Positions 2,520-6,544 of a stretch of DNA of 6,544 nucleotides are shown piece after piece (within the stretch, counting starts at the first letter, position 1; each line of letters starts with the position of its first letter). Under the pieces are notes generated by a model. That model saw nothing but the letters and a program-made list of their open reading frames with translations, had not been told where the DNA came from and did not search any database. Origin of the DNA: a virus (taxonomy: Duplodnaviria > Heunggongvirae > Uroviricota > Caudoviricetes); IMG/VR virus record IMGVR_UViG_3300039122_000006. One strand, given 5' to 3'. Position numbers and translations under genes: made by a program.

Positions 2520-2673
2520 AACCATCAGAATAACAACGAGTTAGCAGTAGGGTTTTATTCAAAGTTTTCCAGGATTTTCCTTGTTTCCAGAGCGGATTGG
2601 TAAGACAATTAGCGTTTGAATTTTTCGGGTTTAGCGCGAGTGGGTAACGCTCGTCACATCATAGGCATGCATG

Positions 2674-2712
2674 CAGTGCTCTGGTAGCTGTAAAGCCAGG
2701 GGCGGTAGCGTG
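2674..2712 (+). promoter_or_regulatory. JUMPstart element (39 nt) in the rfb leader
   Basis: CAGTGCTCTGGTAGCTGTAAAGCCAGGGGCGGTAGCGTG at 2674-2712 matches the JUMPstart sequence found upstream of polysaccharide gene clusters. GGTAGC occurs twice within it (2683-2688 and 2704-2709). Confidence 0.85.
2701..2712 (+). promoter_or_regulatory. ops (operon polarity suppressor) site, the RfaH recruitment and pause signal
   Basis: GGCGGTAGCGTG at 2701-2712 on the non-template strand, 75 nt upstream of the rmlB start; identical to the canonical 12-nt ops element with 8-nt core GGCGGTAG. Confidence 0.85.
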
Positions 2713-2787: not shown

Positions 2788-3873
2788 GTGAAAATACTTG
2801 TTACTGGTGGCGCAGGATTTATTGGTTCAGCTGTAGTTCGTCACATTATAAATAATACGCAGGATAGTGTTGTTAATGTCGATAAATTAACGTACGCCGG
2901 AAACCGGGAATCACTTGCTGATGTTTCTGATTCTGAACGCTATGTTTTTGAACATGCGGATATTTGCGATGCACCTGCAATGGCACGGATTTTTGCTCAG
3001 CATCAGCCGGATGCAGTGATGCACCTGGCTGCTGAAAGCCATGTTGACCGTTCAATTACAGGCCCTGCGGCATTTATTGAAACCAATATTGTTGGTACTT
3101 ATGTCCTTTTGGAAGCCGCTCGCAATTACTGGTCTGCTCTTGATAGCGACAAGAAAAATAGCTTCCGTTTTCATCATATTTCTACTGACGAAGTCTATGG
3201 TGATTTGCCTCATCCAGATGAAGTAAATAATACAGAAGAATTACCCTTATTTACTGAGACGACAGCTTACGCGCCAAGCAGCCCTTATTCCGCATCCAAA
3301 GCATCCAGCGATCATTTAGTCCGCGCGTGGAAACGTACATATGGTTTACCGACAATTGTGACTAATTGCTCGAACAACTATGGTCCTTATCATTTCCCGG
3401 AAAAGCTTATTCCACTGGTTATTCTTAATGCACTGGAAGGTAAGGCATTACCTATTTATGGCAAAGGAGATCAGATCCGCGACTGGTTGTATGTTGAAGA
3501 TCATGCGCGTGCGTTATATACCGTCGTAACCGAAGGTAAAGCGGGTGAAACTTATAACATTGGTGGGCACAACGAAAAGAAAAACATCGATGTAGTGCTC
3601 ACTATTTGTGATTTGCTGGATGAGATTGTACCGAAAGAGAAATCTTATCGTGAGCAAATCACTTATGTTGCTGATCGTCCGGGACACGATCGCCGCTATG
3701 CTATTGATGCTGAGAAGATTGGTCGCGCATTGGGATGGAAACCACAGGAAACGTTTGAGAGCGGGATTCGTAAAACGGTGGAATGGTACCTGTCCAATAC
3801 AAAATGGGTTGATAATGTGAAAAGTGGTGCCTATCAATCGTGGATTGAACAGAACTATGAGGGCCGCCAGTAA
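2788..3873 (+). CDS. rfbB: dTDP-glucose 4,6-dehydratase RmlB (361 aa), GTG start
   Basis: GTG at 2788-2790 gives [20 protein letters not shown]... with the Rossmann NAD-binding motif GGAGFIGS; the SDR catalytic motif YSASK and the conserved [10 protein letters not shown] are present. Stop TAA 3871-3873. Only a weak Shine-Dalgarno (GGA 2776-2778). Confidence 0.93.
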
Positions 3874-4772
3874 TGAATATCCTCCTTTTTGGCAAAACAG
3901 GGCAGGTAGGTTGGGAACTACAGCGTGCTCTGGCACCTTTGGGTAATTTGATTGCTTTTGATGTTCACTCTACTGATTATTGCGGTGATTTTAGTAATCC
4001 TGAAGGTGTAGCTGAAACCGTAAGAAGCATTCGGCCGGATATTATTGTCAATGCAGCCGCTCACACCGCAGTAGACAAAGCAGAATCAGAACCGGAGTTT
4101 GCACAATTAATTAACGCAACAAGTGTCGAAGCGATTGCGAAAGCAGCAAATGAAGTTGGAGCCTGGGTTATCCATTACTCGACTGATTACGTCTTCCCTG
4201 GAAATGGCGATATGCCATGGCTGGAGACGGATGCAACCGCACCACTAAATGTTTACGGTGAAACCAAGTTAGCCGGAGAAAAAGCGTTACAGGAATATTG
4301 CGCGAAGCATCTTATTTTCCGGACCAGCTGGGTCTATGCAGGAAAAGGAAATAACTTCGCCAAAACGATGTTACGTCTGGCAAAAGAGCGTGAAGAATTA
4401 GCGGTTATTAACGATCAGTTTGGTGCGCCAACAGGTGCTGAACTGCTGGCTGATTGTACAGCACATGCCATTCGTGTCGCACTGAATAAACCGGATGTCG
4501 CAGGCTTGTACCATTTGGTAGCCAGTGGTACCACAACCTGGTACGATTATGCTGCGCTGGTTTTTGAAGAGGCGCGCAAAGCAGGCATTCCCCTTGCACT
4601 CAACAAGCTCAACGCAGTACCAACAACAGCCTATCCTACACCAGCTCGTCGTCCACATAACTCTCGCCTTAATACAGAAAAATTTCAGCAGAACTTTGCG
4701 CTTGTCTTGCCTGACTGGCAGGTTGGCGTGAAACGAATGCTCAATGAATTATTTACGACTACAGCAATTTAA
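3873..4772 (+). CDS. rfbD: dTDP-4-dehydrorhamnose reductase RmlD (299 aa)
   Basis: ATG at 3873 overlaps the rmlB stop (TAATG). N-terminal GKTGQVGWEL is a GxxGxxG dinucleotide-binding motif; YGETK is the YxxxK catalytic motif. GAGG at 3859-3862 serves as an internal Shine-Dalgarno inside rmlB. Stop TAA 4770-4772. Confidence 0.93.
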   Translation: MNILLFGKTGQVGWELQRALAPLGNLIAFDVHSTDYCGDFSNPEGVAETVRSIRPDIIVNAAAHTAVDKAESEPEFAQLINATSVEAIAKAANEVGAWVIHYSTDYVFPGNGDMPWLETDATAPLNVYGETKLAGEKALQEYCAKHLIFRTSWVYAGKGNNFAKTMLRLAKEREELAVINDQFGAPTGAELLADCTAHAIRVALNKPDVAGLYHLVASGTTTWYDYAALVFEEARKAGIPLALNKLNAVPTTAYPTPARRPHNSRLNTEKFQQNFALVLPDWQVGVKRMLNELFTTTAI

Positions 4773-4829: not shown

Positions 4830-5711
4830 ATGAAAATGCGTAAAGGTATTATTTTAGCGGGTGGTTCTGGTACACGTCTTTATCCTGTGACTATGGCTGT
4901 CAGTAAACAGCTATTACCTATTTATGATAAACCGATGATCTATTACCCGCTCTCTACACTGATGTTGGCGGGTATTCGCGATATTTTGATTATCAGTACA
5001 CCTCAGGATACTCCTCGTTTTCAACAATTGCTGGGTGACGGTAGCCAGTGGGGCCTGAATCTTCAGTACAAAGTGCAACCTAGCCCAGATGGCCTCGCGC
5101 AGGCATTTATCATCGGTGAAGAGTTTATTGGTGGTGATGATTGTGCTTTGGTTCTTGGTGATAATATCTTTTACGGTCACGATCTGCCGAAGCTAATGGA
5201 GGCCGCTGTTAACAAAGAAAGTGGTGCAACGGTATTTGCCTATCACGTTAATGATCCAGAACGCTATGGTGTCGTTGAGTTTGATAAAAACGGTACGGCA
5301 ATCAGTCTGGAAGAAAAACCGTTAGAACCAAAGAGTAATTACGCCGTTACAGGTCTGTACTTTTATGATAACGACGTGGTTCAGATGGCGAAAAACTTGA
5401 AGCCGTCTGCACGTGGTGAGTTAGAAATTACAGATATTAACCGTATTTATCTTGAGCAGGGACGTCTGTCTGTCGCGATGATGGGGCGTGGCTACGCGTG
5501 GCTGGACACGGGGACTCATCAGAGTCTGATAGAAGCAAGTAATTTTATTGCGACAATTGAAGAGCGCCAGGGATTGAAGGTTTCCTGTCCTGAAGAGATT
5601 GCATTTCGTAAAGGTTTTATTGATGTTGAGCAAGTAAGAAAATTAGCTGTACCACTAATAAAGAATAATTATGGGCAGTATCTTTATAAAATGACGAAGG
5701 ATTCAAATTAA
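4830..5711 (+). CDS. rfbA: Glucose-1-phosphate thymidylyltransferase RmlA (293 aa)
   Basis: ATG at 4830 gives [21 protein letters not shown]..., carrying the nucleotidyltransferase signature GGxGTRLxP. Shine-Dalgarno AAGGAA at 4817-4822. Stop TAA 5709-5711. Confidence 0.93.
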
Positions 5712-6268
5712 TGAATGTGATTAGAACTGAAATTGAAGATGTGCTAATTCTGGAGCCAAGAGTATTTGGTGATGATAGAGGTTTCTTTTATGAGAGCTTT
5801 AATCAATCAGCATTTGAACATATTCTAGGCTATCCGGTCAGCTTTGTTCAAGACAATCACTCACGTTCATCAAAAAATGTACTCAGAGGCCTTCACTTTC
5901 AACGCGGCGAGTACGCACAAGATAAACTTGTACGCTGCACTCATGGAGCAGTTTTTGATGTTGCTGTTGATATTCGACCCAATTCGGTATCCTTTGGTAA
6001 ATGGGTTGGTGTTCTGCTTTCAGCTGATAATAAGCAGCAGTTGTGGATACCAAAAGGGTTTGCTCATGGCTTTTTGGTTCTGTCTGATATCGCTGAATTT
6101 CAATATAAAACTACAAACTATTATCATCCTGAAAGCGATTGTGGAATATGTTGGAATGATGAACGCATTGCAATTGATTGGCCCCAAACATCAGGGTTAA
6201 TCCTTTCGCCAAAAGATGAAAGGCTCTTTACGTTAGATGAGCTTATCAGATTAAAATTAATTGCATGA
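5711..6268 (+). CDS. rfbC: dTDP-4-dehydrorhamnose 3,5-epimerase RmlC (185 aa)
   Basis: ATG at 5711 overlaps the rmlA stop (TAATG). Size and sequence ([30 protein letters not shown]...RGLHFQ...) fit the cupin-fold RmlC family. Shine-Dalgarno AGGA at 5698-5701. Stop TGA 6266-6268. Confidence 0.93.
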   Translation: MNVIRTEIEDVLILEPRVFGDDRGFFYESFNQSAFEHILGYPVSFVQDNHSRSSKNVLRGLHFQRGEYAQDKLVRCTHGAVFDVAVDIRPNSVSFGKWVGVLLSADNKQQLWIPKGFAHGFLVLSDIAEFQYKTTNYYHPESDCGICWNDERIAIDWPQTSGLILSPKDERLFTLDELIRLKLIA

Positions 6269-6544
6269 ATACGAATAAATTATCTTTAAGAAGAAACGTT
6301 ATATATCTGGCTGTCGTTCAAGGTAGCAATTATCTTTTACCATTGCTTACATTTCCATATCTTGTAAGAACACTTGGTCCTGAAAATTTCGGTATATTCG
6401 GTTTTTGCCAAGCGACTATGCTATATATGATAATGTTTGTTGAATATGGTTTCAATCTCACAGCAACTCAGAGTATTGCCAAAGCAGCAGATAGTAAAGA
6501 TAAAGTAACGTCTATTTTTTGGGCGGTGATATTTTCAAAAATAG
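6265..6544 (+). CDS. wzx: O-antigen flippase Wzx/RfbX, 3'-truncated at the window edge (93 codons visible)
   Basis: ATG at 6265-6267 overlaps the rmlC stop (ATGA). Frame 1 is open to the window end, so the gene is absent from the ORF track. Translation MNTNKLSLRRNVIYLAVVQGSNYLLPLLTFPYLVRTLGPENFGIFGFCQATMLYMIMFVEYGFNLTATQSIAKAADSKDKVTSIFWAVIFSKI is hydrophobic with TM-like segments, typical of a MOP-family polysaccharide transporter. AT-rich, as is usual for O-unit processing genes. From memory it resembles E. coli K-12 RfbX; not verified. Confidence 0.75.
   Translation, partial: MNTNKLSLRRNVIYLAVVQGSNYLLPLLTFPYLVRTLGPENFGIFGFCQATMLYMIMFVEYGFNLTATQSIAKAADSKDKVTSIFWAVIFSKI

Follow-up and report, generated by a model that had tools for sequence, protein, structure and literature searches.

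The segment from position 2674 to position 2712 of the window (the whole 6,544-base stretch of DNA that was analyzed) is almost certainly the JUMPstart/ops element in the leader of the Escherichia coli K-12 rfb (O16 O-antigen) operon, i.e., the site at which the anti-termination factor RfaH is loaded. The 39 nt on the plus strand read CAGTGCTCTGGTAGCTGTAAAGCCAGGGGCGGTAGCGTG and match Rfam family RF01707 (JUMPstart) along the full length of the model (positions 1 to 38 of 38), with a score of 60.0 bits (gathering score, 35) and an E value of 2.7e-12. The match spans exactly 2674 to 2712 and is far beyond chance. The rfb copy shares with the family the conserved 5-bp stem-loop (CUGGU/GCCAG) and the location just upstream of a polysaccharide gene cluster; it has one loop base more than the model consensus, and no other substantive difference is found. 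JUMPstart was described by Hobbs and Reeves (1994). The explanation given here is built on the observed sequence, family, strand, position, and conservation of the element and on the weak ribosome site of rfbB.

The element ends in the ops 12-mer GGCGGTAGCGTG (2701 to 2712, plus strand), the core bases of which, C3 to G8, occupy 2703 to 2708. This is the sole match in the window when both strands are searched with one mismatch allowed, and 0.01 matches are expected by chance. The exact 12-mer contains both the RfaH-contact core (positions 3 to 8) and the pause-inducing T11-G12. It lies on the coding (non-template) strand, and 75 nt (2713 to 2787) separate it from the GTG start codon of rfbB at 2788. 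The hexamer GGTAGC is found at 2683 to 2688 and again within ops at 2704 to 2709, with starts 21 nt apart; the first copy, on the plus strand, shares bases with both the 5' arm and the loop of the stem-loop and is in upper case (conserved) in the Rfam consensus. Since GGTAGC occurs six times in the window versus 1.7 times expected, the repeat by itself is weak evidence. The first-pass annotation had described a 39-nt JUMPstart at these positions ending in the exact ops 12-mer, a distance of 75 nt to the rmlB GTG, and a hexamer present twice at an interval of 21 nt, and all three descriptions agree with the sequence as read directly and with RF01707; the comparison with published JUMPstart sequences that it proposed gives an end-to-end match to the family. 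It had also called the element known rather than novel, which is correct; the published experiments used the same rfb site. The rfb JUMPstart/ops belongs to the best-studied bacterial genome and counts among the type examples of the JUMPstart/ops/RfaH system, and is for that reason already known; what the finding provides is a correct annotation of the control point of the K-12 O-antigen operon. A 15-codon open reading frame, MQCSGSCKARGGSVH (ATG at 2671 to TAA at 2718), runs across the whole JUMPstart, but its ATG is not conserved in alignments of relatives, and the frame most likely arose by chance.

Over its whole length, the window agrees base for base (100% identity) with E. coli K-12 strains, among them MG1655 (wcaM'-galF-rfbBDAC-rfbX'), and lies on the minus strand of NC_000913.3, the coordinate of which equals 2,115,849 minus the window position. 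The annotation of NC_000913.3 gives the gene order wcaM (running off the window start), galF, rfbB, rfbD, rfbA, rfbC, and the start of rfbX, and a protein family scan of the window concurs with it. The first gene of the operon, rfbB (rmlB; 2788 to 3873, GTG start), matches the NCBIfam dTDP-glucose 4,6-dehydratase with an E value of 4.6e-239. It is followed by rfbD (3873 to 4772), rfbA (4830 to 5711), rfbC (5711 to 6268), and, from 6265 to the window end at 6544, the first part of rfbX/wzx, all placed by the MG1655 annotation and the family scan and all, like rfbB, on the plus strand; the window takes in the first 3.8 kb of the rfb operon. Along the window the G+C content drops from 0.55 in galF to approximately 0.36 near rfbX. 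The predicted anti-Shine-Dalgarno duplex at rfbB (-3.3 kcal/mol) is the weakest among five gene starts, and the values for galF, rfbD, rfbA, and rfbC range from -5.5 to -6.1 kcal/mol. A weak first ribosome site, together with a long operon of low G+C content that is a target for Rho and H-NS, is a feature of RfaH-dependent operons and is found here; the weak Shine-Dalgarno sequence and the GTG start of rfbB (2768 to 2790) fit the recruitment of ribosomes by RfaH. At the opposite end of the window, an open reading frame of 404 amino acids begins at GTG 133 within 1 to 1347. In this region, frame 1 is already open at base 1, and its match to WcaM sets in at profile position 61, which points to an intact wcaM that runs off the window start, not to a truncated gene.

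The pausing at ops, the binding of RfaH, and the dependence of the rfb site on both are taken from published work. Belogurov et al. cloned the ops fragment upstream of K-12 rfbB into a lux reporter, the expression of which needed both RfaH and ops; RfaH raised the lux output more than 700-fold with ops and approximately 20-fold without it (PMC2871177). These data bear out the earlier designation of the O-antigen operon as RfaH dependent. RfaH is said to be brought to two operons in K-12 (PMC9765446), and transcription of waaQ and rfb, both of which are described as operons without a ribosome-binding site, requires RfaH at ops (PMC8745692; PMC6358824). Expression of rfb is approximately 300-fold higher with RfaH (PMC5449661). 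C9 and U11 are the positions at which RNA polymerase pauses on ops templates, and RfaH moves the delay to G12/C13 (PMC5995543); in the window these positions correspond to 2709, 2711, and 2712/2713, respectively. The substitutions G4C, G5A, A7T, and G8C, which fall within 2704 to 2708 of the window, abolish the recruitment of RfaH (PMC5995543). The non-template strand of ops forms a hairpin with the pairs C3:G8 and G4:A7, in which T6 is flipped out for recognition, and RfaH refolds and brings the 30S subunit, via S10, to messages without a Shine-Dalgarno element (PMC6391919).

Applied to the rfb leader, the known mechanism would proceed as follows. Transcription from a weak sigma-70 promoter near 2615 would enter the leader, and at ops RNA polymerase would pause, U11 (2711) being the RNA 3' end. 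There the ops bases, accessible in the non-template strand of the bubble, would form the small hairpin (C3:G8 and G4:A7, with T6 flipped out), which would be read by the N-terminal domain of RfaH. RfaH, freed from autoinhibition, would then displace NusG on the polymerase and remain bound through the operon, where it would suppress pausing and Rho-dependent termination, while its refolded C-terminal domain would, through S10, bring the ribosome to poor ribosome-binding sites such as that of rfbB. The rfb site agrees with the ops/RfaH system as represented by rfaQ, rfb, hly, kps, and tra in its perfect 12-mer on the non-template strand, which precedes, in a probable leader, a long operon of low G+C content with a weak first ribosome site, and no difference from that system is seen; this exact site is the ops source in the RfaH reporter plasmids. 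Belogurov and coworkers are also said to have observed RfaH on the K-12 rfb operon by ChIP-chip in 2009.

Upstream of the element, a long and nearly perfect hairpin lies directly after the stop codon of galF (2415), at 2454 to 2511 on the plus strand, and is followed by a U-rich run to approximately 2521. Its RNA folds with -34.2 kcal/mol (z = -8.6 versus shuffles). The hairpin probably acts as an intrinsic terminator between galF and the rfb transcript, and a promoter of its own is therefore most likely for rfb. The hairpin escaped the simple terminator scan because the loop and stem rules of the scan are narrow. Rfam MIR8001 matches at 2450 to 2517 on both strands, far below threshold, reflect the terminator palindrome. 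A standard promoter and terminator scan of 2517 to 2674 gave nothing useful. Under relaxed rules, the only sigma-70-like site in the conserved block is a candidate rfb promoter at 2581 to 2609 on the plus strand, with a -35 hexamer TTGTTT (2581 to 2586), a 17-nt spacer, and a -10 hexamer GACAAT (2604 to 2609); it is a poor match, with 7 of 12 consensus bases. Both hexamers are invariant in eight E. coli loci that differ in their O-antigen clusters, two of these loci being just 81 to 85% identical overall, and in the alignment of the region downstream of galF from these eight strains, the block from approximately 2559 to 2624 is invariant even in those two.

From the predicted promoter, rfb transcription most likely starts near 2614 to 2616, which would give a leader of approximately 173 nt. 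For the O7 cluster, which is homologous, Marolda and Valvano (1998) reportedly arrived at a leader of about 173 nt. No entry for rfbB or galF is present in three supplementary start-site data sets (SMRT-Cappable-seq, Cappable-seq, and a dRNA-seq comparison). The first-pass annotation had the transcript start upstream of 2674. The strand of ops is correct for a transcribed leader, and the probable terminator and the conserved promoter-like site fit a start upstream of the element, so that the statement is supported by inference from these two features. The whole leader folds no better than shuffles (z = -0.6). A tentative 7-bp hairpin at 2636 to 2654 (plus strand) is present in both the minimum free energy and the centroid folds of 2614 to 2800. 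It sits between the candidate start site and JUMPstart and is kept among E. coli rfb leaders, the changes being mostly in the loop or from G.U to G:C.

The conservation of the element was examined in eight E. coli strains with differing O-antigen clusters by aligning the sequence that follows galF. JUMPstart is conserved across the eight loci even where the flanks on both sides are unrelated. In strains with a first O-antigen gene other than rfbB, homology to K-12 runs through JUMPstart and ends at 2711/2712, and in strain 2014C-3338 (L004; O169/O183-type cluster), the upstream homology is lost approximately 65 nt before JUMPstart and resumes for JUMPstart alone. Because homology stops at the last bases of ops (loci L002, L004, L005, and L006), the exchangeable O-antigen cassette has its 5' boundary at JUMPstart. 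When the 39-mer was searched by blastn, all complete E. coli genomes (5,426 of 5,426) contained similar sequences, at a median of three sites per genome. The other two JUMPstarts of MG1655 are in the leaders of wza (colanic acid; L009, 4423 to 4461) and waaQ (L010, 3183 to 3221), both on the minus strand, above the Rfam threshold, and with an identical ops 12-mer.

A pattern scan with one genome per species found at least 120 loci. Among the 120 matches listed, approximately 115 are genuine JUMPstarts, of which one is from Aeromonas and almost all others are from Enterobacterales; five are chance matches in G+C-rich genomes and were removed. The first same-strand open reading frame downstream was identified for 87 of the matches listed, and these include 25 to 28 RmlB-like dehydratases, 18 WaaQ-type heptosyltransferases, and 10 Wza exporters; the remainder include sugar nucleotidyltransferases, ABC-2 transporters, Wzx, Ugd, and Wzi. 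Among the matches listed, this frame lies at a median distance of approximately 85 nt from ops, and the JUMPstarts of relatives lie upstream of polysaccharide genes on the sense strand, as in rfb. Enterobacterial JUMPstarts were also seen on contigs filed as Arthrobacter (L042, L063, L066, L078, and L081), Vagococcus (L018), and Chryseobacterium (L090, 281 bp). Several of these contigs are short and of low coverage, and a 41-mer of L078 is identical to K-12 rfb; they are probably assembly contaminants.

The JUMPstart stem-loop occupies 2681 to 2699 on the plus strand and follows the Rfam consensus structure, with the 5' arm CUGGU (2681 to 2685), a 9-nt loop, and the 3' arm GCCAG (2695 to 2699). 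Among the matches listed, 97 distinct JUMPstarts have 98.6% of cells paired, with 20 double-change cells versus 5.3 in shuffles, counted without regard to phylogeny. At the pair 2682:2698, the same 97 sequences have U:A in 72 cases, A:U in 14, G:U in 5, and G:C in 1, a pattern that no shuffle reached; the swap from U:A to A:U is already found among the three K-12 JUMPstart paralogs. The pattern used for this first scan, with one genome per species, fixed three stem bases and the last stem G. In a second scan, of metagenome contigs, just TGGTAGCT and ops were fixed, with a free gap of 4 to 30 nt between them. Here the pair 2681:2699 is C:G in 58 cases, U:G in 23, U:A in 16, and a mismatch in 4, and the 3' A is paired with a 5' U in 16 of 19 (Fisher p = 9e-6, which ignores relatedness). 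In the metagenome scan, the stem is separated from G1 of ops by exactly 1 nt in 101 of 102 JUMPstart-like matches, and the loop length takes four values from 9 to 12 nt. The 3' base of the stem (2699) is 12 nt from the RNA 3' end of the pause (2711), which agrees with the geometry of a hairpin-stabilized pause. On the other hand, the folding energies of the 39-mer, as RNA or as DNA, are no better than those of shuffles, and the structural support is therefore from covariation only. The constraint most simply acts on the nascent RNA, because upstream of the bubble the two DNA strands have paired again when the polymerase sits at ops, and because the U.G wobbles are compatible with pairing on the sense strand only.

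The covarying stem at a fixed distance from ops is the sole result that goes beyond the textbook account, and as a pattern in the sequence it fits a possible nascent-RNA hairpin that aids the ops pause. According to this idea, the upstream half of JUMPstart would form a hairpin in the RNA exit channel, fixed 12 nt from the ops pause, and would strengthen the pause or cap backtracking, thereby lengthening or stabilizing the time window in which RfaH is loaded. It would be a layer added beside the RfaH/ops explanation and does not exclude it. We consider such a role possible but on the whole doubtful. The 5-bp stem covaries at two pairs, the U.G wobbles make it specific to the sense strand, and its spacing to ops is held constant although the loop varies in length, all of which argue for the hairpin. 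The his pause hairpin lies approximately 11 nt from the end of its pause. The rfb stem closely approaches this class I arrangement of the his leader, as it likewise has 5 bp and its 3' base is 11 to 12 nt from the RNA 3' end of the pause; the ops pause, by contrast, is classed as elemental/backtracked, and on the templates tested it occurs without need of a hairpin. According to a 2026 preprint, pausing at ops is stronger within the native rfaQ leader than at an identical ops that lacks the native flanks, and NusA increases the pause in the native leader; the preprint leaves the cause unexplained (PMC13596475). RfaH, unlike NusG, suppresses hairpin-stabilized pausing (PMC6391919). Against the hairpin, ops is classed as an elemental/backtrack (class II) pause (PMC5995543), and on template pIA349 the ops pause persists with RNA polymerase mutants that abolish hairpin-stabilized pausing (PMC4227799), a result that bears on the stem only if pIA349 carries the JUMPstart stem. 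Moreover, the ops 12-mer alone recruits RfaH in vitro, the folding energy of the element is not above that of shuffles, and each search pattern behind the covariation counts, which ignore phylogeny, fixed part of the stem bases. A literature search that paired JUMPstart with a pause hairpin found, among the papers listed, none with both. If the hairpin acts in this way, the stem would explain the reported dependence of the ops pause on the native leader context, and the 39-nt JUMPstart would have a function beyond that of the 12-nt ops, which would account for the conservation of the 39-mer across Enterobacterales.

Other readings of the element compete with its role as an RfaH loading signal. 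The upstream GGTAGC (2683 to 2688) could be a second, weak ops at which RfaH or the polymerase makes a first contact, since it repeats positions 4 to 9 of ops, including G4, G5, A7, and G8, which are essential for the recruitment of RfaH (PMC5995543), and is conserved in the Rfam consensus. This copy, however, has T in place of C3, so that the C3:G8 pair is lost; it is without the G that the consensus pause has at -10; and it is followed by bases that differ from G10-T11-G12. Its GGU pairs in the covarying stem, which explains its conservation by itself, and the sixfold occurrence of the hexamer in the window also weakens the case, so that a second ops is improbable. Two ops sequences were reportedly spoken of by Marolda and Valvano in their 1998 paper on the O7 promoter. 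Another candidate function is suggested by the waaQ leader, the JUMPstart of which lies within the annotated 73-nt sRNA RirA, reported to bind and titrate RfaH: the rfb leader, a paralog with an identical ops and a similar stem-loop, could likewise yield a short RNA, from the start site to just past ops, that titrates RfaH. The two leaders nevertheless diverge where such an RNA would have to end. RirA terminates 16 nt downstream of ops and immediately behind a run of six U, while in rfb ops is followed by CAUUAAUACC (CAUUAAU) and no U run, and a RirA-like 3' end is for that reason not expected; the rfb leader lacks the U run at which such a discrete short RNA would end, and the MG1655 annotation has no sRNA there. 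JUMPstart is approximately 58 nt from the inferred start site in rfb and 18 nt in RirA, the first start codon is at 75 nt in rfb and at 83 nt in waaQ, and the waaQ stem has A:U where that of rfb has U:A. With the six-U run and the 73-nt sRNA present in waaQ only, titration by an rfb leader RNA is quite improbable.

It might also be supposed that JUMPstart is conserved mainly as a recombination junction for swaps of the O-antigen cluster, not as a regulatory site, given that E. coli strains with different O clusters cease to be homologous exactly at its last bases. The same element with the same ops, however, precedes waaQ and wza in K-12 as well as hly, which are not swapped cassettes, and the reporter experiments, in which expression depended on RfaH (PMC2871177), contradict a junction as its sole function; we therefore give this reading hardly any weight. 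As the element also stands before waaQ, wza, and hly, the cassette junction is a consequence of the function of JUMPstart as the RfaH loading signal, and not its purpose. The junction at 2711/2712 is better read as the last base that has to be retained.
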